This document shows, piece after piece, positions 6,879 to 46,327 of a DNA stretch of 46,327 bases (its first letter is position 1; each line of letters opens with the position of its first letter). The DNA lies in IMG/VR virus record IMGVR_UViG_3300020152_000031, positions 1 through 46,327 of that record; one strand, given 5' to 3'. Under the pieces are notes generated by a model. The model saw nothing but the letters and a program-made list of their open reading frames with translations. It had not been told where the DNA came from and made no database searches. A program made the position numbers and the translations under genes. Origin of the DNA: a virus.

Positions 6879-6907
6879 ATTGTGTTTGGCGTTACTGATA
6901 CTCTTAT

Positions 6908-7566: not shown

Positions 7567-7595
7567 AATTGTGTTTGGTTATCTCCTATACTCTT

Positions 7596-28264: not shown

Positions 28265-30073
28265 ATGTCCAAAGCCATCCAGGCACTCCCAGCCTATCTC
28301 GGGGCTCCCATTGACGCGACACAGACGTCCTTTAGTATTCGCGGCCTAAAGGACACTCGAGGAAACTACATAACGTCCATGATAGGCGACGTGATGCACG
28401 CGACTATTGAGCCGCGCTCCACGACAAACCAGGAAATCGTCTCTTGGACAGGCATTACGGACAATGGAGGTGGCTACATCACGGTCACTGGCGTTACGCG
28501 TAACATCAACCCGCAGCCACCGTACGGAGGCCAGACGGGTACCATCGCGCACGCTTCTGGCGTTGAAATCATCCTTACGGACACCGCTAAGCGCTGGTCT
28601 GAGTACCCATCTACCGAGGAGACGGCAACCATCAACGACACGTGGACTTTCGCGGTGCGCCCGCTCATCACCGGCACTTCCGCTGACGTGACGGCCGTTG
28701 CTACCAAGCAGGACATCCTCGATGCCGCGCTCGGTTCCTTCCTCATCGGCTCCCTCATTGTCGATGGTGACGCACAGGGAGCGGTGACAGAGAACGCAGT
28801 ACTTTTCTGGGATACCGCTAACAGCGGTTGGGCTGTTGCGCATGCAAACGTGTCTGCTGAGGTATCGGGTACCAAGCTCGGTATCGCACAGGGCACCGCA
28901 AGCGATGGTATCGCCATTCCTGGTGGTGTGCTCATCCAGGGTCAGTCCGCTAACTTCAGCGGCCTCTCGGTAGGCCCGGTTTACATCTCTGATACCGGAA
29001 CCATCACAAACACACCTGGCACCATCTCAGTGCAGGTCGGTGTTGCGGTCTCAGCTACGACCGTCATCTTTGACCCATACATGGCCCGCACGCTCACTGC
29101 GGACCAGTCTGCTGCGCTTGCCGGTGGTGGAGATTACGGCACTCCATCTAGCTCAAACAAGTTCCTCACCGCAGCGACCATCGCGTCGACTACGATTTTC
29201 AAGATTCCAACCATCCAGACGTTCACGGCAAGTGGCACGAGCCATGGTGTGTCGGGTACACAGTTCGACATCACCAACCCAACGGGCACGACATGGCGTT
29301 ACACGTGGGATGGAACGGGCACTGACCCTAACATCAACTCAACCACCTTCCCTATAGGTGCACAGGTACGCATAAAGGACGTCTCTTCCTTCTTCTCGGG
29401 CAACCAGGGCATCTTTGCCATCACAGGCTCAGGGTCTAACTACTTCGAGGTTACGAACGCTTCTGGCAGCAGCCAAAGCAACGTACAGCTTGGAGGTGCG
29501 AACCAGATTACGGTCTACCAGAGCCAGACCTGGACCAAGCCAGCAGGTCTCAAGTACGTAGAAGTCGAAGTACTGGGTGGAGGCGCAGCGGGTCAGGAAG
29601 CAGGCGGAGACAGTGCAGGTGCCGGAGGTGGTGCCGGAGGTTACGCCCGCAAGCTCATCGCCGCAGCTTCTCTTGCTGCAACCGAGACTGTCAAAATTGG
29701 TATCGGCGGTTACTGGGGTGATACCACCTCTTCAGGCAACAGTAGGTACCAGCCATCCGCGACAACCTTTGGTTCTATCCTTACTGCAAACGGTGCGTCC
29801 AGTCAGACTGGCGGTACCGCTACAGGTGGTGATTTCAACATCCAGGGAGATTACGGTATCAGCCCTGTATCAAGCTCAACAGGTCCGACCGTTGGTGGTA
29901 ACGGTGCAAGTTCCCCGTATGGAACTGGCGGGCTTGGAAATAGTGGCTCAGGTGGAGATGCTCTTGGTTACGGCTCTGGTGGTGGTGGTGGTGAGAATGA
30001 TAGCAGCTCCGGTACCTTCTACGGAGGAGCGGGTGCAAACGGTCTTGTGGTGGTCAAGCACTTCTACTTCTAA
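28265..30073 (+). CDS. tail fibre protein with a Gly-rich C-terminal domain
   Basis: 602 aa. The C-terminal 270 aa are paralogous to 22934-23752 (TWRYTWDGTGTDPNINS..., WTKPAGLKYVEVEVLGGGAAG...). TATACT-N7-ATG lies upstream. Confidence 0.7.
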   Translation: MSKAIQALPAYLGAPIDATQTSFSIRGLKDTRGNYITSMIGDVMHATIEPRSTTNQEIVSWTGITDNGGGYITVTGVTRNINPQPPYGGQTGTIAHASGVEIILTDTAKRWSEYPSTEETATINDTWTFAVRPLITGTSADVTAVATKQDILDAALGSFLIGSLIVDGDAQGAVTENAVLFWDTANSGWAVAHANVSAEVSGTKLGIAQGTASDGIAIPGGVLIQGQSANFSGLSVGPVYISDTGTITNTPGTISVQVGVAVSATTVIFDPYMARTLTADQSAALAGGGDYGTPSSSNKFLTAATIASTTIFKIPTIQTFTASGTSHGVSGTQFDITNPTGTTWRYTWDGTGTDPNINSTTFPIGAQVRIKDVSSFFSGNQGIFAITGSGSNYFEVTNASGSSQSNVQLGGANQITVYQSQTWTKPAGLKYVEVEVLGGGAAGQEAGGDSAGAGGGAGGYARKLIAAASLAATETVKIGIGGYWGDTTSSGNSRYQPSATTFGSILTANGASSQTGGTATGGDFNIQGDYGISPVSSSTGPTVGGNGASSPYGTGGLGNSGSGGDALGYGSGGGGGENDSSSGTFYGGAGANGLVVVKHFYF

Positions 30074-38575: not shown

Positions 38576-38752
38576 GCAGTCCTCCCTTGCTATTCCTATT
38601 TTAGTGTAACTCCTTGTTTGTCGCGTGTGATTCTCCACGGTAAAAACCCAGAGCCAGAAGCTCCTCGTCGGTGTGCTCGCATATCCACATCTGCACGTAC
38701 CTTCCAGTTACGAAGTGCCCCTTCTCACATTCGTTGTATGTGTGAGCCACGG

Positions 38753-38820
38753 CACCCCGCCTAGGAATTGAACCTAGCAAGCTCGGTTTTGGAGACCAAG
38801 CCGTACCCAGTACGCGAGGT
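38753..38820 (-). tRNA. tRNA-Trp(CCA)-like element with a truncated D-arm
   Basis: Acceptor ACCTCGC/GCGGGGT, anticodon arm TTGGT-CTCCAAA-ACCGA, and T-arm CTAGG-TTCAATT-CCTAG. Only 14 nt lie between the acceptor and anticodon stems, so the total is 68 nt. Confidence 0.45.
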
Positions 38821-38821
38821 T

Positions 38822-38896
38822 TGGCAGCCACGGCAGGATTCGGACCTGCGACCCTCCGGGTAACAACCGGGCGCTCTACCGCTGAGCTACATGGCT
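38822..38896 (-). tRNA. tRNA-Asn(GTT) with an encoded CCA
   Basis: Cloverleaf folded by hand: AGCCATG TA GCTC-AGCGGTA-GAGC G CCCGG-TTGTTAC-CCGGA GGGTC GCAGG-TCCGAAT-CCTGC CGTGGCT G CCA. Confidence 0.8.
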
Positions 38897-39061
38897 ATAT
38901 TACGAAAGTAACTATCCCGTTAGGGAGACTGAATCGCTTGGCGGAGCCTATACACCACGCGTCCGTGATGGAAGATACCAACGATTCAGTTCCCTAGGCG
39001 CAGTGTTTCCACACTCCAGGGGAGAATTACTCCCCCTAACGAGACAGTACTTGTATTCTTG
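38897..39061 (-). ncRNA. structured spacer RNA of unknown function between the tmRNA and tRNA-Asn
   Basis: There is a long imperfect stem TAGGGAACTGAATCGTTGG / CCAAGCGATTCAGTCTCCCTA and an inner hairpin CATCAC-ggacgc-GTGGTG. A 5' hairpin GGGGAG-taatt-CTCCCC can alternatively pair with CTCCCTAACG (as CGTTAGGGGGAG). Confidence 0.35.
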
Positions 39062-39425
39062 TGGACCTGGGGGGAATCGAACCCCCGTCCCAACACCAGC
39101 CCTACAACCACTCTACATAGCATATCTGACGTACCGCGTCAGCTCGTGTTGCTTGCCGAGCAAGCTGCCCTGCCCATCGTTTGACGATGAAGGCGGGCGG
39201 GTACACCTCCACCAACTGCTAGTGATGCCGCAGTCTGGGATACCAGCAGTATCTGTCCCAGGCCACGCCGTTAGGCTCGCGCGAAAGCAGGGGTTCCGAG
39301 GGAACCAACTGTCGCGAAGAACGGAGAGACGATGCTCTTTGCGTTTGTTTGTGCGACCATCTGTATGTCGCCTCAGTAGCTATGCAGGCTGTAAGGTTCT
39401 AGTGAGGTCAAAGCCAGTCAGGCCC
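39062..39425 (-). ncRNA. ssrA: tmRNA (SsrA)
   Basis: The 5' end GGGCCTGACTGGCTTTGAC pairs with the 3' end CAGGTCC-A, including a G3:U70 wobble. The T-arm is GGGGG-TTCGATT-CCCCC. The candidate tag ORF runs from GCA (39354) after GUC to TAA (39273-39271) and reads AQTNAKSIVSPFFATVGSLGTPAFARA. Confidence 0.8.
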
Positions 39426-39426
39426 G

Positions 39427-39498
39427 TTGCGCAGACCGGAATCGAACCGGTTATCTCCTGGTTATGAGCCAGGCGAGTTACCATCCCTCACCCGCGCT
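39427..39498 (-). tRNA. tRNA-Met(CAT) with initiator-like features
   Basis: AGCGCGG GT GAGG-GATGGTA-ACTC G CCTGG-CTCATAA-CCAGG AGATA ACCGG-TTCGATT-CCGGT CTGCGCA A. It has an A1:A72 mismatch, an A11:U24 pair, and G30-C40 / G31-C39 pairs. Confidence 0.75.
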
Positions 39499-39536: not shown

Positions 39537-39540
39537 TCTG

Positions 39541-39611
39541 CTGGGACGCAGGGATTCGGACCCCGATTCAGCGGTCCAGAACCGCTTGTCCTACCATTAG
39601 ACGACATCCCA
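39541..39611 (-). tRNA. tRNA-Gln(CTG)
   Basis: TGGGATG TC GTCT-AATGGTA-GGAC A AGCGG-TTCTGGA-CCGCT GAAT CGGGG-TCCGAAT-CCCTG CGTCCCA G. It has a U1:A72 pair, as in bacterial tRNA-Gln. Confidence 0.8.
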
Positions 39612-40015: not shown

Positions 40016-40506
40016 CTACTCGTTATTGGTAATGTCTCCCTCTCCCTTACGCTCTGGGGTGCTCTCCTCGTTCAACTCGTCTATATGCGGATTCCTCGGA
40101 ATGACGCCGTTCTCAAAGTCAGCGTTGAGATGCCTTCCAGTGAGGTAGAAGTACAGCATATTGGCGCTTATCCAGTACGTGCCGGTGAACGTCTCAGAAT
40201 CGGAGCGAAGAGGTATCTTGTTCATCCCTGCTTGAGACACCATGAGTGCTACTTCCTGCCTCGCCTTCTCGCGTTCCTGGGTGATGAGGTTAGCGAATCC
40301 CCATCGTGCTTGAGCTATGGTGATTACGTCGTTTTCGTACTTGTGAGGAAACTCTTTATCAAACTCCTCCCACTCCTCCGTAGTGGCGGTGTCTTTGTAC
40401 GCGCCTCCACAATTCATGCACTCACCGCTATAGTCACCAAGTACATTGGTTGACTGCTTTGGTTTCTCACAGCACTTCTCGTTGGTGTTGTTGGGGGTTT
40501 GGGTCA
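40016..40506 (-). CDS. hypothetical protein
   Basis: Trimmed to the ATG (MTQTPNNTNEK...), which lies 2 nt after the upstream stop. Confidence 0.55.
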
Positions 40507-40508
40507 TA

Positions 40509-40697
40509 CTACTCTTCAACTAGAAAGTCATTGCGTGGACACACAAGAACAATCCTTTCGTCTCCCCATCGGTCAAAGCGTGTTGCCCTGGAACTGAACC
40601 AAAAGCACAGCTTGAAGAACCACGAGCGTTTTATTGCATCACTTATTTTCATGCGCTCTAGCTCTAGTCCGTGAGTCTCACAGTGTGTTTGCTTCAT
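40509..40697 (-). CDS. hypothetical small protein
   Basis: 62-aa ORF, tightly packed. Confidence 0.45.
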   Translation of the reverse strand: MKQTHCETHGLELERMKISDAIKRSWFFKLCFWFSSRATRFDRWGDERIVLVCPRNDFLVEE

Positions 40698-40700
40698 ACC

Positions 40701-41120
40701 CTAGCTTCCATTAGTTGACTGAGGACGAGGTGCCGGTGCTGGCGCTTGGTAACGTGGTGCCTCTTGAACACGCACGGTACCGTTGGGGTACGCGCGTGCT
40801 GGCATGTTCTGCACACCTCCGTGGTAGCTCACCTCTGCCATGAGGTGGGCCTTGCGACGGTTATGGTAAAGCTCAAGTTCGGTCTCAATTGCCTCCATCA
40901 GACACTGCTTAGAGCGGTCACTCTCCCAGCAGAATGTCATCTCAGAATCAGCTCGAGGGGTGATGTGGACGTAATAGCGTCGCTGCGTATCCTCGTCTTT
41001 GAGCTGAAGGGTTATCTGGCCTTTTATCTGGACGTAGTTCTCGCTCTTGTATGAGCCTCGGTCCTGACCAAACAACACCCTGTGACAATTATCGCACCCG
41101 TATACTTGTACTTTTCCCAT
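40701..41120 (-). CDS. Cys-motif protein (CDNC...C...C), a paralog of 45360..45596
   Basis: GCDNCHRVL...YVQIKGQITLQ...TFCWESDRSKQCLMEAI, followed by a P/A/Q-rich tail. Confidence 0.55.
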   Translation of the reverse strand: MGKVQVYGCDNCHRVLFGQDRGSYKSENYVQIKGQITLQLKDEDTQRRYYVHITPRADSEMTFCWESDRSKQCLMEAIETELELYHNRRKAHLMAEVSYHGGVQNMPARAYPNGTVRVQEAPRYQAPAPAPRPQSTNGS

Positions 41121-41132
41121 ATTATTGTGAAG

Positions 41133-41294
41133 TTACTTATTAGTTTTCGCCGCTGCTTCCAATTCCTCAACTACCTTTCCGATGCTCTTGCCTTCTTTGG
41201 CCGCCCGAATCTTGAGCCTACGGTGAACCTTTGAAGGTACTTTCACCATCTTCTCGTCTGGTTGCCTCTCGGCTGTCTTACTGTTTGCTGTCAT
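41133..41294 (-). CDS. ribbon-helix-helix (Arc/MetJ/CopG-like) DNA-binding protein, 53 aa, below the ORF-track cutoff
   Basis: Hand translation gives MTANSKTAERQPDEKMVKVPSKVHRRLKIRAAKEGKSIGKVVEELEAAAKTNK. V.VP..VH.RLK..A...G.S matches the RHH beta-strand and helix pattern. Confidence 0.6.
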   Translation of the reverse strand: MTANSKTAERQPDEKMVKVPSKVHRRLKIRAAKEGKSIGKVVEELEAAAKTNK

Positions 41295-41300
41295 ATATCT

Positions 41301-41348
41301 ATATTATCATTGGTAAACAAGTTATACAAGTTATCCTTCTGTGGATTC
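41301..41348 (-). promoter_or_regulatory. internal promoter for the RHH gene: degenerate box GAATCCACA (41340-41348), TTGTAT (41324-41329), N17, TAATAT (41301-41306), N6, ATG
   Basis: Counted directly. The arrangement is leaderless. Confidence 0.55.
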
Positions 41349-41768
41349 CTCGCGGAACTGATAGAGCTTGTCAGGCTCTGGCACGTCGATACCGAGCTCA
41401 GCAGCCTCTACGATGACATTTGTGATGAACTCTGCCATCTCGTTGGTGCTCATGTCGGCAGTCGATTTGAGGGTAGTGATTTCCCCTCCCCTCCACTGCT
41501 TGCGCTCCCGTAGGAACTTCGACTTGAATATCTCGTGGAGCTCTTCTGGCGCGTGCCCGGTGTGGTCGCTGATGTACGGATACACTACACCCCATAGGTA
41601 TCCGAGCTGCTCCTGGCTCTTGCTGCGCTTCTTGCGTTCGATGGTGACCACCACGTCGCAGTCTGCAAAGAGCTGCATCATCCCCCGGAACCAGCGCGGA
41701 TTTGCAAGCTCGAGCTTGCCGTCCTTCAGTTGTCCGTAGTGTACGAGGCGTTCAAACTTACGTGCCAT
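41331..41768 (-). CDS. NinB/Orf-like recombination mediator (putative)
   Basis: VVVTIERKKRSKSQEQLGYLWGVV...LKSTADMSTNEMAEFITNVIVEAAELGIDVPEP parallels lambda NinB (VVTIQERNRSLDQNRKLWA...STSRMRVGEFAELLELIQAFG). Confidence 0.45.
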   Translation of the reverse strand: MARKFERLVHYGQLKDGKLELANPRWFRGMMQLFADCDVVVTIERKKRSKSQEQLGYLWGVVYPYISDHTGHAPEELHEIFKSKFLRERKQWRGGEITTLKSTADMSTNEMAEFITNVIVEAAELGIDVPEPDKLYQFREESTEG

Positions 41769-41769
41769 G

Positions 41770-42255
41770 TTAGGAGAATGAGATACCTAGCACTGAGACT
41801 GCCATACCAATTATGGCTGCAAAGACAACGACCTCGAGGAGCGGTAGCGAAGACCAGCGAAAACGAGCACGCGGGTCCTTCTCTATCGTCTGAATGATAG
41901 CGAGGGATGCGATGACTGCCGCATACGGTCCCTTCCGGTGAGCCTGTGTGAAGTCGTCGGCGTACTCACCCAGACACAGCATGCGCCAGCGGTCGGCACG
42001 CAACGCGTTCCACCTCACCATAGCAGGATGCCGCAAGAGCGTTTCATGCGCGTGACGCAATTGCATCTCCCATGGGTTGTCGTAATCGAGCTTCACCTCA
42101 ATTTGAGGCAGTGGGAACAATGACTTGTGGTGCCTGAGGCCCTTCTTGGTGACGAAACGAATCCCGTCATGGGTCAGCACCGCGTTGTCTACTCCCTTGA
42201 GTTTGAGGATGCGAGGGAGGTCAAGCCGCATCTGTTGTTCAGTCCAGTAAGCCAT
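41770..42255 (-). CDS. E2-like (UBC-like) Cys-domain protein with a C-terminal TM anchor, a paralog of the core of 43977..44942
   Basis: HPAMVRWNALRADRWRMLCLGEYADDF aligns without gaps to HLNAHWGCNGDAFEWDDLCLGGYADGF. The C-terminal LLEVVVFAAIIGMAVSVLGI is hydrophobic. Confidence 0.4.
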   Translation of the reverse strand: MAYWTEQQMRLDLPRILKLKGVDNAVLTHDGIRFVTKKGLRHHKSLFPLPQIEVKLDYDNPWEMQLRHAHETLLRHPAMVRWNALRADRWRMLCLGEYADDFTQAHRKGPYAAVIASLAIIQTIEKDPRARFRWSSLPLLEVVVFAAIIGMAVSVLGISFS

Positions 42256-42258
42256 AAG

Positions 42259-42921
42259 CTAATTCTCTTTGATGAATATGCTGGTTGCAGCATCGTAAAT
42301 AATGCGGCTCGGGATAGAGCGGTTCTGCATCAGAATCTTCTTGACGTTGTTCGCCATGAGACCTGCACAGATGTTTGCAGTGTACGCCGTGAAGCGTGCG
42401 CCGCACGGGTCCTCATCCCCAGCCGGTGGAATCTGAGCAAGCCATGCCTCTGCGTTAGGGAAGTAATACACCTCCACCTGCTCTGCGCCCACGCGCCCAT
42501 CCACAATCGGCACTTCTATGCCTTTCTCAATAAGAAGCTCTGCAATCGCGCGGCGTGCATCCAGGCTATCAACTGCCGACACGATGATGTCGTACGTGCT
42601 GCCCTCCTTGAGCTCAAACATTTCAGCGTAGACCGCGTGTGCGTTGTCAGGCTGAATGTGTAAGAGTTGGTCGAGCACCGCATCTACCTTGTTACGTCCG
42701 ATGTCAGATGCGCCATAGGTCTGTGTTGCGAGGTTATGCTCCTCGACCGTGTCGTGGTCGAAAAGTGTCATGGGTACCTGCATGCGTGCCAAGGTGTGTG
42801 CAAGGTGGGAACCGATGGTTCCGACACCTACCACTGCGACCTTCTTGTTCTGGTACTGTGACGGGTCGTAAATCATTGTGTGGCGCATGCCGTTGAGAGG
42901 TTTGACGAGAGAAGTAGACAT
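42259..42921 (-). CDS. ThiF/MoeB/E1-like adenylating (ubiquitin-activating-like) enzyme
   Basis: Trimmed to the ATG with the conserved leader (aaacacaatATG; MSTSLVKPL...). The motifs are KKVAVVGVGTIGSHLA, LFDHDTVEEHNLATQ and VSAVDSLDARR. Confidence 0.75.
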   Translation of the reverse strand: MSTSLVKPLNGMRHTMIYDPSQYQNKKVAVVGVGTIGSHLAHTLARMQVPMTLFDHDTVEEHNLATQTYGASDIGRNKVDAVLDQLLHIQPDNAHAVYAEMFELKEGSTYDIIVSAVDSLDARRAIAELLIEKGIEVPIVDGRVGAEQVEVYYFPNAEAWLAQIPPAGDEDPCGARFTAYTANICAGLMANNVKKILMQNRSIPSRIIYDAATSIFIKEN

Positions 42922-42932
42922 ATTGTGTTTGG

Positions 42933-43958
42933 TTAGTTGATTCCGTAAGTAAGTTCTGTCAGGCGCGCCTGTGCATCGACGAGTTGCTCCTTTAGCCATG
43001 AGTACTCATCGTCATCAGTGGCGTTGGTCTGCTCGTAAATGCGCATCTGTTCAGTGATGCCTGCGATGTAGCGACGTAGCTCGTTTGGGTCTGACACGGC
43101 AGACAGGTCATACGTATCAACGATTACGTCGTCGTTTGCCTCGTCGCTTTCGTTTGCCGTGTCGTCGAGTTTTCCCATGCGTGAGAGCTCATCCCAAGTA
43201 ATGTTGTAGCTCTTGTACCCGCTCTGGTAGATGATGTAGGGGTCTCCGTCTTCATCCATCGCGACCACACCACCCATGTGCTTTATAGAGGTCAGTTTGT
43301 GCCCAGGAGGAACCTCAATAGAATCAAGGTCATACCCGCTGTAAGCGCCAAACCCAAGATTAGCCTGCGGCTGGTAGGAGCTGGGAGTGTAGCGAAAGCT
43401 CTTTTGCTCTACCTTTGCCTTCACCTCCTCGCGGATGTCATCAGGAATGATGAGCGGCTTATCTTCTTCCTCCACCTCGCGATGACACGTAGGACAGAGC
43501 TCTGGCTCCGGCTCCTCGACCACGATTTCCATATCCTCGTGCGTAAGACGGAACGGGCGGTACGTATCCATACGAGCCTCGCGGTCGCGCCTCTTGTTGA
43601 CCACGAGCGACACAAGCCAGTCGAACTCGTCAGAGCCGTCGATGGTGCCGGTGTCAGTGCCAGAGAAGAACGCCTGCATGTCGTTGTGCGAGTGCCACCA
43701 GAGACGCCACTTGGAAGGAGACTTGCCCGCTTTGATAAGGTCCATCTGGAACTTTGCGAGTGCCTCACTCGAGAGGTCTGCGGTACCGCCGGTCACCTTC
43801 TGTTCGTAGATGGCAATTTCCGTGACGGTTATCTCGCCGGTCTCCTGGTTGTACTCGACGGCACCCATGCCAGCGATTTCAGAAGGGACAGACTGCACAT
43901 ACTGGTTGAGGCGCTCCTCGATGTGCTTTGGGATAATGAGTTTTGGTTTGGTAAGCAT
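42933..43958 (-). CDS. JAB/JAMM (MPN+) metalloprotease with a roughly 200-aa C-terminal extension
   Basis: PSEIAGMG is the upstream Glu motif, and WWHSHNDMQAFFSGTD matches HxHx7Sx2D. Confidence 0.8.
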   Translation of the reverse strand: MLTKPKLIIPKHIEERLNQYVQSVPSEIAGMGAVEYNQETGEITVTEIAIYEQKVTGGTADLSSEALAKFQMDLIKAGKSPSKWRLWWHSHNDMQAFFSGTDTGTIDGSDEFDWLVSLVVNKRRDREARMDTYRPFRLTHEDMEIVVEEPEPELCPTCHREVEEEDKPLIIPDDIREEVKAKVEQKSFRYTPSSYQPQANLGFGAYSGYDLDSIEVPPGHKLTSIKHMGGVVAMDEDGDPYIIYQSGYKSYNITWDELSRMGKLDDTANESDEANDDVIVDTYDLSAVSDPNELRRYIAGITEQMRIYEQTNATDDDEYSWLKEQLVDAQARLTELTYGIN

Positions 43959-43976
43959 AATTGTATTTGTTAGTGA

Positions 43977-44942
43977 TTAGAAGCTCTCGTCGTCGTAGCC
44001 GTAGTCCCCAGCGTCATCGCTGCGACCTTCTGACCCGTTGAAGAACATACTGACTGATATACCCAGCTTGGTAGCTACGTTGCGCACGTCCTGCTGGTAC
44101 TGCGTGCGTATCTCTTCGAGCGCATCGCGGTCGGCTACCTTCTTGAAGATGACCTCGTTGATAGGCGCAAAGCCAAGTGTCGATGCCCACTGGAGGCGGT
44201 GACGGTAGGCGCTTGCCCAGCCAGAGCTCTGGAGGTACAGCGAGACTGCGGACAGAAGTTCCGGGATGCCCTTGTTCGCCTCAGCGCGGAACCCGTCAGC
44301 GTACCCACCAAGGCAAAGGTCGTCCCACTCGAAAGCGTCGCCGTTGCAACCCCAGTGTGCGTTCAGATGATGGTACAGTCCGGTCTCAGCGATGAAGTCC
44401 TTGAACTGGTCCTCATCAGCAAAGCGGATAGCCACTGCTCGTACGTTCTTGTCGTACCACATATCCTTGTTGGCGATTCCCGCAAGGCTGATACGAATGA
44501 AGTACTGCGGCATCTCTGCGTATGTGACCTCATCGAGCATGAACTCCTGGCGGCGTCCGTCTGATGTGTACGCGATGCCAGAGTAGAAAGGTGTCTTGAG
44601 CTGACCCTTGCGCGTGCGTACGGTCATGTACTCGCCCTGCACCGCAACAGTGTCGACCCATGGCATGCTTGCCACTCGTTCGAGGACGGCGCGCATGTCA
44701 TCTGCGGTCATCTCTCCTTCGGGCATCTTTGCTAGTTGCTCAAGCAAAGTATTCTTGCGCTCGGTGTAGCGCACTATCTCCTTCTGCAACGCCTCGATGG
44801 TAAGGTCCGTGTTCGCAATATGCGTCTCCACGTCCTTGCGCTCGCCGGAACGGGTATCGAGATACGCGAGCATGTTCTTCACTGCTGTATCCGATACCTT
44901 GATGGCTGCCTGCTTCACTTCTTTACCGTCTGGTTTTCTCAT
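43977..44942 (-). CDS. coiled-coil N-terminus plus an E2-like (UBC-like) Cys domain (putative)
   Basis: Beta-rich YFIRISL / AVAIRFA is followed by YHHLNAHWG...DDLCLGGYADGF, which resembles an HPN-like flap plus the L-C-L of E2 active sites. Confidence 0.4.
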   Translation of the reverse strand: MRKPDGKEVKQAAIKVSDTAVKNMLAYLDTRSGERKDVETHIANTDLTIEALQKEIVRYTERKNTLLEQLAKMPEGEMTADDMRAVLERVASMPWVDTVAVQGEYMTVRTRKGQLKTPFYSGIAYTSDGRRQEFMLDEVTYAEMPQYFIRISLAGIANKDMWYDKNVRAVAIRFADEDQFKDFIAETGLYHHLNAHWGCNGDAFEWDDLCLGGYADGFRAEANKGIPELLSAVSLYLQSSGWASAYRHRLQWASTLGFAPINEVIFKKVADRDALEEIRTQYQQDVRNVATKLGISVSMFFNGSEGRSDDAGDYGYDDESF

Positions 44943-45011
44943 TGTGTTTTCCAGTTATGACTAATCGAACCGATGGGAGCCCCCACGAGGGTGAGAGCTC
45001 CTACGGGCCTA

Positions 45012-45248
45012 CTAGCGGCTACCTGCCTGCTTAGGCGTGGTGAGCGCGAGCACGTCACCGTCATCAAGGAGGTTGTCCATCTCAGCGCGTACGCCGGAGA
45101 CGAAAATCTCGGTGCGGTCAGAGACCGGAACACCTGCCTTCTCGAGAGCCTCACGAACGGTTGAATCAACCGGGAGCGAGACCTCAATTTCCTCGGAACC
45201 GAGGCGAGAGACGATAACCTTGATAGATGATTCTGGGTTGCTACGCAT
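45012..45248 (-). CDS. ThiS/MoaD-like beta-grasp ubiquitin-like protein (putative), ending ...PKQAGSR
   Basis: 78 aa. IKVIVSRLGSEEIEVSLPVDSTVREALEKAGVP...IFVSGVRAEMDNLLDDGDVLAL matches the ThiS/MoaD pattern. It is the first gene of the cassette. Confidence 0.5.
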   Translation of the reverse strand: MRSNPESSIKVIVSRLGSEEIEVSLPVDSTVREALEKAGVPVSDRTEIFVSGVRAEMDNLLDDGDVLALTTPKQAGSR

Positions 45249-45278
45249 AATTGAATTGTGTTAGCTGTCTAATGGGAT

Positions 45279-45288
45279 GTGATATCAC
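45279..45288. promoter_or_regulatory. perfect 10-bp palindrome GTGATATCAC in the leader of the Ubl cassette, an operator candidate
   Basis: Read directly. It lies about 13-22 nt downstream of the -10 hexamer. Confidence 0.4.
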
Positions 45289-45300
45289 TCACATACAGGT

Positions 45301-45359
45301 ATACTATCACAACTTGTATACCTTCACAAGCGGGGTGTGTATAACCTACCTGTGGATAA
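45301..45359 (-). promoter_or_regulatory. Promoter of the Ubl cassette: box TTATCCACA (45351-45359), N21, TTGTGA (45324-45329), N17, TAGTAT (45301-45306). A 1-mismatch box lies at 45336-45344.
   Basis: Counted directly. The box abuts the TAG stop of 45360..45596. Confidence 0.6.
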
Positions 45360-45596
45360 CTATTTCCACTGAAAGGGGAACTTCTGCCGCTGCTTATCAA
45401 GCCACTCTAGGAAGCATGGGCCGTTGCAGAAGACCACTTTCATGTTGTCGCGCTCAGTCAGATACCTGAACTGTAGGTCGCCGTTCTCGTGCTCCACCTG
45501 CTCGCTTATAGAGCCGTGCAAGTGAATCTGGATGAATGGCTGGTCTGACCGGTCGACGAGGCGCTCGCAGTTGTCGCAGCTTTTTCGGAAAGCCAT
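45360..45596 (-). CDS. Cys-motif protein (CDNC...C...C), a paralog of 40701..41120
   Basis: SCDNCERLV...FIQIHLHGSI...VFCNGPCFLEWL. Confidence 0.55.
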   Translation of the reverse strand: MAFRKSCDNCERLVDRSDQPFIQIHLHGSISEQVEHENGDLQFRYLTERDNMKVVFCNGPCFLEWLDKQRQKFPFQWK

Positions 45597-45599
45597 ACG

Positions 45600-45950
45600 C
45601 TACGAGCTCTTTACTTTGTCGAAGTACTCGACGGGAAGGAACACCTGCGTGTAATGGTCCTTGGTGTCCTGTTTGAAGTGCATGATGATGCCCTTCTCGC
45701 GCCATACACGATTCTTCACCATGTAGAGCACACCAAGTTCTATGTCGTGGATATACACGCTTCCATCCTCGGGGAGCTCATTGAAGAGAATGTCATAGTC
45801 CATTCCCCACGAGCCGTTGTCACCAACTTTGTGGTAGAGGTGTCGAGACTGCTTTACGCGTTTCTTGAACACCTTGCCTACCAGCATGCCGATGATGACC
45901 CCGTTCTTCAGGCGTACCTCGCGTCGGTCTGGTCGTGCTCGCGAGGCCAT
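45600..45950 (-). CDS. hypothetical protein
   Basis: 116-aa ORF. The junction TAGCGTATGGC is repeated at both of its ends. Confidence 0.55.
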   Translation of the reverse strand: MASRARPDRREVRLKNGVIIGMLVGKVFKKRVKQSRHLYHKVGDNGSWGMDYDILFNELPEDGSVYIHDIELGVLYMVKNRVWREKGIIMHFKQDTKDHYTQVFLPVEYFDKVKSS

Positions 45951-45953
45951 ACG

Positions 45954-46327
45954 CTAGAAGGGAATATCCGCAGGGTCGAGCTCCTCCTCCGGGTAATCTG
46001 AAGCCGGAAGCGGCGCGTCAAACTCTTCTGCTAATGGGTCACGTGCTGGTGTCGCGACACCTGCTGCGCCCGTTGCTGCTGCGGGTGTAGCTGCACCTGG
46101 CGTTGCCGAACCAATGCGACGGATAACGACGTACCCGCCCTCGTCCTCGCCCACCTCGTATCCCTCTGGAAGAAGGTACATAGCACGGACGCGACGACCG
46201 CCCACGTTCATAGGCTCAATGTGGGTACGAAGTGTCTGACCCATCCACTGACGGCTATCTTCACCGAACGCCTCTATGAGCGCGTTGATGGTTGGCTTGT
46301 TGATGCGCACGTTGAGAGGCTCCGCAA
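45954..46327 (-). CDS. SSB-like protein, 3' portion. The ORF runs off the window end and continues in 128-281.
   Basis: A Gly/Ala/Pro/Thr-rich linker (ATPGAATPAAATGAAGVATP) is followed by an acidic tail ending EEELDPADIPF, like the bacterial SSB C-terminal DDDIPF tip. Confidence 0.6.
   Translation of the reverse strand, partial: AEPLNVRINKPTINALIEAFGEDSRQWMGQTLRTHIEPMNVGGRRVRAMYLLPEGYEVGEDEGGYVVIRRIGSATPGAATPAAATGAAGVATPARDPLAEEFDAPLPASDYPEEELDPADIPF
46201..46327. repeat. Terminal direct repeat, copy B, identical to 1-127
   Basis: Base-by-base comparison with the window start. Confidence 0.95.

Follow-up and report, generated by a model that had tools for sequence, protein, structure and literature searches.

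A candidate ubiquitin-like protein-conjugation cassette in an uncultured phage lineage

The prokaryotic systems for conjugation of ubiquitin-like proteins (Ubls) characterized so far, namely, type II CBASS, Bil, and Bub, are to our knowledge all host owned and antiphage. A locus in the virus record IMGVR_UViG_3300020152_000031 of IMG/VR raises the question of whether a phage may encode a pathway of this kind itself. The whole record, 46,327 nucleotides long and referred to here as the window, is a circular permutation of the metagenomic contig ENA ERZ27252484 (46,341 bp). On its minus strand, five open reading frames (ORFs) follow one another at positions 45012-45248, 43977-44942, 42933-43958, 42259-42921, and 41770-42255, separated by gaps of 69, 18, 11, and 3 nucleotides. 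A previous inspection of the letters alone, hereafter the sequence-only reading, had taken them for a Ubl, an E2-like protein (here, protein A), a JAMM protease, an E1, and a second E2-like protein (here, protein B); the run of five minus-strand genes and the spacing that it reported were reproduced. We deem it fairly probable that the cassette is a self-contained, phage-encoded module for protein conjugation of a Ubl. The identities of its E1 and JAMM protease, the precursor-type C terminus of its Ubl, the invariant cysteines, and the conserved linkage of the genes are presented first, followed by the E2-like proteins, the pathway in which the five products may act, and the comparison with known systems.

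Core components and their conservation

The 220-residue product of the gene at 42259-42921 (minus strand) is a minimal E1-like adenylating enzyme of the ThiF/MoeB fold. It matches Pfam ThiF (PF00899) over residues 24 to 208 with 87.7 bits (cut-off, 28.1; E = 8.8e-25) and the PADLOC models of Cap2-type E1-E2 proteins with an E value of 2e-16, and the ThiF/MoeB/E1 adenylation motifs pointed out in the sequence-only reading are all found. Across seven sequences, including crAss001 gp76, the glycines of the GxGxxG motif (G32, G34, and G37), D55, D57, E60, N63, Q67, K78, D118, R123, and C173 are invariant, and Cys173 is shared also by the E1s of crAss001 and Xanthomonas phage PhiXhv-12, distant as these are. 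Besides Cys173, there is a single further cysteine (185) in the protein, with no CxxC zinc motif, and no rhodanese domain was detected with Pfam. Against NCBIfam it stays below all the equivalog cut-offs, including those of ThiF, MoeB, PRTRC_ThiF, and 6A-MBL cap2_3, the best match being ThiF (75.5 bits; cut-off, 159). On profile and motif grounds, we are certain that the protein is an E1-like bare adenylation domain. A canonical ThiF/MoeB-type sulfur-carrier E1 was considered and rejected, given the missing CxxC pair and rhodanese domain, the sub-equivalog score, and the lack of a sulfurtransferase on record nearby.

The gene at 42933-43958 (minus strand) encodes a protein of 341 residues with a complete E..HSHx7Sx2D motif, made up of E27, H89, S90 of the HSH triplet, H91, S99, and D102, of which E27, H89, H91, S99, and D102 are invariant in four orthologues. 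A four-orthologue profile recovered Rpn11/PSMD14 and an archaeal Rpn11-like JAMM protein at an E value of about 1e-3, in an alignment of 129 residues that spans the whole MPN domain and pairs the catalytic residues. The match to Pfam Prok-JAB is sub-threshold (19.3 bits versus a cut-off of 25; E = 1e-3), as are those of the orthologues (14.5 to 20.6 bits). The catalytic domain occupies approximately residues 1 to 140, and the C-terminal half is variable. Judged from its invariant motif and its alignment to Rpn11, the protein is with certainty a JAMM/MPN+ metalloprotease, and the HxHx7Sx2D signature first noticed in the letters is borne out in full.

The putative modifier is the 78-residue product of the gene at 45012-45248 (minus strand). 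It scores 22.1 bits with Pfam Ub-Mut7C, for which the cut-off is 23, and together with its orthologues it gives sub-threshold Pfam matches to four beta-grasp families (Ub-Mut7C, TGS, DUF348, and ThiS). With a profile of 56 sequences, 9 of 12 PDB matches are to MoaD, PF1061, SAMP1, and SAMP2, the best being 1vjk (MoaD) with an E value of 0.0098, and hhalign pairs the protein with ThiS/MoaD/CysO at an E value of 0.0019 and a probability of 14%. A shallow profile gave PDB matches that stem from repeat proteins designed de novo and were discarded as artefacts. A relative in a metagenome-assembled genome (MAG) of Myxococcales, locus L019 of our collection, passes the Pfam ThiS cut-off (27.6 versus 22.5 bits) and has the C terminus GG-CR. 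The C-terminal PKQAG of the phage proteins, ending at G76, is invariant in eight loci and is followed by one to three variable residues (SR in the window), while P72, K73, A75, and G76 are invariant in all 56 sequences. Since an invariant PKQAG precedes a variable tail of one to three residues, the protein looks like a precursor from which a peptidase would have to trim the tail to expose the glycine. The family comprises 167 proteins, many of them on contigs of 40 to 50 kb and three of them named "sulfur carrier protein ThiS" by the Joint Genome Institute (JGI). The 78-residue protein is thus a probable beta-grasp Ubl of the ThiS/MoaD/SAMP type. The ThiS/MoaD-like pattern seen by the sequence-only reading, which had missed the precursor tail, finds backing in several weak but concordant lines of evidence, including the PKQAG terminus, no single test being decisive.

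The order Ubl, A, (A'), JAB, E1, where A' stands for an additional paralogue of protein A, recurs in eight phage-like contexts that are independent of one another, the contigs being 1.4 to 49 kb long, and these contexts include the most divergent branches of the protein A family. In the loci L006, L007, and L009, the cassette is followed by a gene of the size of the NinB-like gene, as in the window, and in L007 and L009 an Omega-repressor-like gene comes next. This wide distribution was overlooked in the sequence-only reading. We regard the cassette as a hallmark of a previously undescribed phage lineage with genomes of about 40 to 50 kb, known from metagenomes only, and as a member of a broader, uncharacterized type of operon that MAGs and jumbo phages have as well.

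The E2-like protein and its relatives

Protein A (43977-44942, minus strand) has 321 residues. Word-indexed protein searches with it and with the 161-residue protein B returned only the queries themselves, whereas an exhaustive HMMER search assembled a family of 65 homologues for protein A, each of which represents a 50%-identity cluster. The protein consists of an N-terminal coiled coil (about residues 18 to 72), a feature that the sequence-only reading had missed, and a C-terminal E2-like domain (about residues 80 to 300). With a mean column identity of only 22%, the family retains P145, C210, Q238, W252, and G257 without exception, and H196-W197, located 13 residues before C210, is conserved in at least 90% of its members. 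A single invariant cysteine in so divergent a family is typical of a nucleophile, which suggests such a role for Cys210.

The AlphaFold2 models of protein A have pLDDT values of 91.8 for the full-length protein and 95.8 for the trimmed domain. The latter is predicted to run from a helix through a beta-meander and a long cysteine-bearing loop to a set of helices, with additional strands and an insertion of some 40 residues, Cys210 being placed two residues before a helix. When the trimmed domain was compared with the PDB by means of Foldseek, the first match was UbcH8 (E = 0.044, probability 0.77, TM-score 0.49), followed by UbcH7. UBC-fold E2s account for 9 of the top 30 matches and are aligned over the whole E2, none of the 30 reaching an E value of 1e-3 or lower. 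Their target-normalized TM-scores are 0.38 to 0.49; E2s are the only fold matched globally, the other matches being local and of low TM-score. The full-length model proved uninformative, since the coiled coil swamped the search. There was no bacterial E2 structure among the top 50 matches of the domain, and no match to it was obtained from Pfam, from NCBIfam, or from sequence-profile searches of the PDB.

More distant relatives help to interpret this domain. In the MAG loci L019, L031, and L029, the protein in the position of A likewise joins a coiled coil to a domain with the motif HPH(V/I)xxDGxPC(F/W)GN, and among the relatives, the phage protein described below included, the HPH lies 8 to 13 residues ahead of the cysteine. 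This HPH-bearing MAG subfamily aligns pairwise with the phage family at an E value of 0.002 and with human E2s also at 0.002, in the latter case from helix 1 through the positions of the HPN and the catalytic cysteine. A further relative is found in PhiXhv-12, a cultured jumbo phage of 228 kb, where a hypothetical protein of 892 residues (XYR92829.1; L003, 1310-3988), encoded directly upstream of a ThiF-like gene, contains an A-type domain at residues 548 to 725 (hhalign probability 93.7%, E = 2e-7). Its motif, HPHMAV..GSLCLGSF, joins the two variants, having both the HPH of the MAG proteins and the LCLG of the phage family. Further phages of Xanthomonas and Erwinia (Ep026, Ep032, PhiXhv-15, and PhiXhv-16) have relatives as well. 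The HPH(V/I)..G..C arrangement resembles the HPN..C of E2s.

Taken together, an E2-like nature of protein A is the best available assignment, plausible and favored but unproven. The UBC fold predicted in the sequence-only reading is backed by the top Foldseek matches and by the HPH...C relatives, but with an E value of 0.044 and no significant UBC profile match. As regards the proposed resemblance of its H..W block to the HPN flap, H196-W197 is indeed near-invariant and C210 invariant, but HW stands in place of HPN.

The MAG loci were collected by scanning GTDB genomes with the JAB profile, which yielded 23 loci, most of them with adjacent JAB and E1 genes and a related Ubl nearby; the scan of GTDB genomes with the Ubl and the pattern scans of IMG/VR with E1, JAB, and Ubl returned no relative. 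The loci (L017 to L039) belong to Omnitrophota, Myxococcales, CPR/Patescibacteria (CPR, candidate phyla radiation), Methylomirabilota, Thermoplasmatota, Promethearchaeota, and Pedobacter. Their JAB proteins are 24 to 38% identical to the JAMM protein of the window, with the E1 usually encoded directly downstream, while several of the Methylomirabilota loci show the JAB gene only. The neighbors of L029 encode an AbiEii-like AAA_21 ATPase, a Fic protein, an ankyrin-repeat protein, and an MFS transporter, a cellular and defense-island-like context that hints at an ancestry in conflict systems.

The block shared by proteins A and B, which the sequence-only reading had picked out by eye, reflects true homology. 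BLASTP aligns the two proteins at an E value of 4e-5, hhalign aligns the 65-member profile of A with protein B over 131 columns (probability 96.4%, E = 1.2e-9), and the family HMM, run on the 629 ORFs of the window in six frames, singles out A and B alone. Protein B (41770-42255, minus strand; 161 residues) is shortened with respect to A and has a hydrophobic C-terminal segment at residues 139 to 161, with a maximum Kyte-Doolittle value of 2.57 at 142 to 160. A single orthologue was obtained, in L006 (E = 2e-14), and there a histidine replaces the cysteine. The protein is absent from L011, L013, and L014, and the proteins found in its position in L007 and L009 were rejected as members of the A family, being unrelated to it. 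Protein B therefore stands as a true paralogue, as expected from its designation as a second E2-like protein, but its cysteine is replaced in the sole orthologue and its positional counterparts in L007 and L009 are unrelated, so that it does not qualify as a conserved second E2. It is a degenerate accessory paralogue with the look of a tail-anchored membrane protein, probably noncatalytic or a localization factor.

Sister phages carry yet other copies, which the sequence-only reading had overlooked. One or two additional E2-like paralogues of about 190 to 230 residues are encoded between A and JAB in L006 (8257-8889), L009 (8151-8846 and 8850-9413), and L014 (2231-2830). They have no coiled coil, keep the invariant cysteine, and align with the family at an hhalign probability of 99.3% (E = 1.8e-20). 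As judged from these alignments, the E2-like domain is repeatedly duplicated within the cassette.

Proposed pathway and alternatives

For these components, we propose a pathway in which the JAMM protease would first cut the tail of one to three residues from the 78-residue precursor and free Gly76, a step that we infer because the invariant PKQAG is followed by a variable tail. The minimal E1, whose fold and motifs are in place, would then adenylate Gly76 with ATP, and the acyl group would pass to Cys210 of protein A as a thioester, possibly via Cys173 of the E1. Protein A would finally move the Ubl onto lysines of host or phage targets, its coiled coil serving either to dimerize the protein or to recruit those targets, and the JAMM protease may also undo the conjugation. 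Protein B and the additional short paralogues could act as UEV-like partners, provide a second relay cysteine, or be localization factors.

The genomic position of the cassette bears on the time at which it might act. A NinB/Orf-like gene (phrog_72) begins 1 nucleotide beyond the end of the cassette, while the tail-fiber gene (28265-30073) is about 10 kb or more away, in agreement with the placement in an early and recombination block, far from the tail genes, given by the sequence-only reading. Because the genes sit among early and recombination genes, we suggest that the module acts in host takeover or counter-defense and not in virion assembly.

A more far-reaching version of this pathway, which we put forward as possible although doubtful when all its parts are taken jointly, is that a virulent-looking phage lineage possesses a complete minimal "ubiquitination" machine built on a new, rapidly duplicating E2 branch. 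In such a machine, the coiled-coil, short, and membrane-anchored paralogues would operate as an E2-to-E3-like cysteine relay, host proteins such as immune or recombination factors would be tagged early, and an operon for Ubl, coiled-coil E2 with HPH..C, JAB, and E1 would be shared from CPR bacteria to Myxococcota and jumbo phages. Such a machine would be for prokaryotic viruses what the ubiquitin ligases are for viruses of eukaryotes.

Several points weigh against a conjugation module. None of the 65 members of the A family matches the Pfam UQ_con or Prok-E2_A-E models, and the assignment of protein A to the E2s lacks statistical significance, with 0.044 as the best Foldseek E value. When the A family, either by itself or combined with its HPH-bearing relatives, was aligned with five human E2s by hhalign, the probability was 0.3 to 0.4% only, although the best path in this insignificant alignment pairs H196 with the histidine of HPN and C210 with the catalytic cysteine. 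No E2-docking (UFD) domain is recognizable in the E1. Finally, a Ubl whose C-terminal tail is trimmed is likewise accompanied by an E1 and a JAMM protease in pathways that serve sulfur transfer alone, such as QbsCDE and CysO/Mec+.

The last point leads to an alternative that we hold to be unlikely, in which the trimmed and adenylated Ubl would be converted into a thiocarboxylate for the thio-modification of tRNA, DNA, or a cofactor, with the cysteine of protein A acting as a persulfide relay. The precursor tail together with a JAMM protease parallels QbsE and QbsD; ThiF is the best NCBIfam match of the E1, and on the side of the Ubl, the ThiS label given by JGI to three family members and the Pfam ThiS match of the relative in L019 point in the same direction. 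The phage has four tRNAs and a tmRNA, too. However, the E1 is without a rhodanese domain, as reported for the E1s of E2/JAB operons (Iyer et al. 2006, PMC1779556). In the nonstructural half of the genome, there is moreover no rhodanese, cysteine desulfurase, or PP-loop ATPase or thiolase on record, nor an acceptor similar to ThiG, MoaE, CysM, or TtuA, and in the Foldseek comparison protein A resembles E2s and not sulfurtransferases. The multiplication of the E2-like domain within the cassettes would not be expected of a simple sulfur relay either.

The same conjugation chemistry might instead be employed in conflict, either to exclude competing phages by tagging their proteins, in the way that host Bil systems tag tail proteins, or as a counter-defense that would modify immune proteins of the host or titrate or reverse its Ubl-based immunity, a role to which we assign a comparably low probability. 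It would suit the early-gene position of the cassette, and the known bacterial Ubl operons are antiphage systems (PMC11601596, PMC10557695, and PMC10097602). The JAB-E1-Ubl core together with an HPH..C protein is also found in cellular MAGs, in one case beside the AbiEii-like AAA_21 ATPase and the Fic protein, and because relatives of the cassette sit in cellular MAG contigs, an exchange with host conflict systems is suggested. However, the cassette is present at the same place in eight of eight phage contexts, which favors a core function of the lineage over a swappable accessory one, and PADLOC detected no CD-NTase or Bil homologue.

It is still less probable that protein A is a substrate, to which the E1 would attach the Ubl directly, or a scaffold that would only assemble the complex, rather than an enzyme, its invariant cysteine being structural or redox active. 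While the long coiled coil would be unusual in an E2 and the E2 assignment is short of statistical significance, the lone invariant cysteine of a family with 22% identity is typical of a nucleophile, the relatives retain an E2-type spacing between histidine and cysteine, and E2s alone match the fold globally. A peptide adenylation of the microcin/MccB type was rejected in view of the 78-residue substrate, a probable beta-grasp protein and as such folded.

Genomic setting and comparison with known systems

Besides the NinB/Orf-like protein, the phage encodes a large terminase, a tail-fiber-related protein, an exonuclease, RusA, and HNH proteins, and there is no integrase on record in the nonstructural half of its genome. 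Megablast and tblastn searches of 50,697 GenBank phage records (INPHARED) with the cassette, the 321-residue protein, and the portal protein yielded no match; because of this, the phage is regarded as very divergent and uncultured, without a close cultured relative. A small ORF downstream of the cassette and the NinB-like gene (41133-41294, minus strand) has a weak Pfam match to Omega_Repress, a ribbon-helix-helix family, and L007/L008 and L009 have such an ORF, too, behind the NinB-like gene, the lengths being 45 to 53 codons. On the other side, just upstream of the Ubl gene, an ORF of 78 codons (45360-45596, minus strand) has a CxxC...CxxxC pattern. It is kept in the same position with 41 to 42% identity in L007 and L009 and not in L006, L010, and L013, and it may encode a small zinc-binding accessory protein. 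Farther away, a full-length tmRNA gene (39059-39425, minus strand; Rfam RF00023, 56.4 bits versus a gathering score of 47, E = 1.4e-19) is embedded in a cluster of four minus-strand tRNA genes, for Trp, Asn, Met, and Gln, at 38751-38820, 38822-38896, 39426-39498, and 39540-39611, and its tag peptide as predicted by ARAGORN, AKSIVSPFFATVGSLGTPAFARA, is unusual. Genes for tmRNA are uncommon in phages.

The single sigma70-like promoter ascribed to the five genes in the sequence-only reading could not be confirmed, since a consensus scan of 40500-46327 found 0 sites, compared with 3.4 expected by chance, and the best candidate read by hand in the 111-nucleotide leader matches 8 of 12 positions. 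This intergenic leader upstream of the Ubl gene (45249-45359, minus strand) contains nested inverted repeats, AGGTATAC/GTATACCT at 45297-45323 and TGTGATA/TATCACA at 45278-45311, and may be a regulatory region. An RNA hairpin is predicted in the 69-nucleotide gap between the Ubl and E2-like genes (44960-45016, minus strand; free energy of -28.7 kcal/mol, z = -2.4). Its GC-rich core of 11 bp, at about 44976-45001, is not followed by a U-tract, and the hairpin may set the expression ratio, stabilize the mRNA, or uncouple the expression of the Ubl from that of the enzymes. Many early genes on the minus strand have a recurrent A/C-rich leader, TAAC..AAACACAAT, immediately 5' of the ATG, for instance, at 42922-42946, 43959-43980, 45249-45270, 1151-1175, 6879-6900, and 7567-7590. 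A Shine-Dalgarno-like core precedes only 1 of the 57 long ORFs of the window, and for this reason the host probably does not use canonical Shine-Dalgarno or sigma70 signals. The data suggest a host without Shine-Dalgarno-led initiation, possibly Bacteroidota-like, which fits with the fact that most of the phage relatives of the E1 come from Bacteroides and Flavobacterium phages.

The significance of the cassette would lie in the chemistry that it brings to the phage. A conserved phage set of Ubl, E1, E2-like protein, and JAMM protease would put conjugation chemistry on the side of the virus as well. It would also add a clade to the E2 fold that is invisible to sequence profiles and unusual in being fused to a coiled coil, in having been duplicated repeatedly, and in including a copy with a tail anchor. 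With four core genes (five in the window, in about 3.5 kb), the system is compact enough for biochemistry, and cultured phages make the question testable, namely, PhiXhv-12 and its relatives, which have an E2-like domain beside an E1, and crAss001 and FpV4, which have a JAB-E1 pair. The counterparts in cultured phages are now mislabeled "thiamine biosynthesis protein." In a full-text collection from which most subscription journals are absent, so that a prior description is possible, we found no phage-encoded E1/E2/Ubl/JAB pathway, which accords with the sequence-only reading, to which no characterized phage pathway of this layout was known.

Prokaryotic operons combining Ubl, E2, E1, and JAB genes were described by Iyer et al. 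(2006; PMC1779556), and several of them are by now characterized, under the names type II CBASS, Bil, and Bub (PMC10097602, PMC10557695, and PMC11601596). By its gene content, the cassette is of this operon kind while falling outside every named type. Phage-encoded Ubl and JAB domains are also present in the tail proteins gpI and gpK of lambda (Iyer et al. 2006, PMC1779556). A lambda-like tail pair was rejected, and its dismissal in the sequence-only reading was well founded, considering that no NlpC/P60 match was found, that the genes have an early and recombination neighborhood outside the tail module with the tail-fiber gene at 28265-30073, and that the cassette includes both an E1 and an E2-like protein. 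The sulfur-carrier systems QbsCDE, CysO/CysM/Mec+, and TtuB/TtuC are similar in combining a ThiS-like protein, a ThiF-like E1, and a JAMM protease, and in QbsE a short tail after the glycine is removed by JAMM. Unlike them, the cassette has no rhodanese or acceptor enzyme and has an additional conserved, cysteine-bearing E2-like protein.

Among phages, a likeness is offered by gp77-gp76 of crAss001 and gp51-gp50 of Flavobacterium phage FpV4, JAB-ThiF pairs whose E1 is 28 to 30% identical to that of the window and keeps the cysteine. In both phages, the JAB-like gene lies immediately upstream of the ThiF gene in the replication module, flanking genes without an assigned function are in the same order, and the ThiF protein is annotated as "thiamine biosynthesis protein." These phages differ in having genomes of about 90 to 100 kb and replication genes of their own, and a Ubl gene is not identified in them. 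Upstream of the JAB-ThiF pair, the motif GYMHSH..NNF..C.G is invariant in crAss001 gp78 (L002, 998-2332), cr106_1 gp071 (L004, 2707-4011), and FpV4 gp52 (L016, 2060-3322), and this motif might form a second site for metal binding or one of the HxH type. As candidates for an E2-like protein, crAss001 gp78 and gp75 were rejected, the gp78 family being unrelated to that of protein A.

PRTRC (ParB-related, ThiF-related cassette), found on plasmids and integrative and conjugative elements, resembles the cassette as a Ubl/E2/JAB/ThiF set on a mobile element. However, neither ParB nor any other PRTRC protein is matched here in NCBIfam. Membership was discarded on scores of 52.6 versus 144.75 bits for PRTRC_ThiF and 14 versus 101.8 bits for PRTRC_A (E = 0.027). 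To type II CBASS, the cassette is linked by the E1, for which the Cap2-type E1-E2 models of PADLOC are the closest (E = 2e-16), and by the JAB partner. In contrast to that system, it has no CD-NTase, its E1 and E2 are unfused, and its Ubl is a dedicated protein and not the C terminus of an enzyme. Assignment to type II CBASS was rejected since only the E1 matches Cap2, the PADLOC "Cyclase" matches having E values of at least 0.015 and falling on unrelated proteins. Bub (Ye et al., PMC11601596) is a further diverged bacterial Ubl/E1/E2 pathway with a peptidase-matured Ubl; it forms serine oxyesters and uses a Ser-His protease, whereas conserved cysteines and a JAMM protease are found here.

None of the Bil or Prok-E2 models of PADLOC, Pfam, and NCBIfam is matched by the cassette. 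Bil (BilABCD), which is probably one of the separate-gene classes of Iyer et al., is similar to it in that the Ubl stands alone and that E2, JAB peptidase, and E1 each have a gene of their own, and presumably also in the maturation of the Ubl to a C-terminal glycine and in a cysteine-based relay. Bil is encoded in host defense islands, whereas this cassette belongs to a phage lineage, and its protein A is a sequence orphan with an N-terminal coiled coil and HW (HPH in relatives) instead of HPN. It is this carriage by a phage lineage, together with the novel E2-like clade, that sets the cassette apart.

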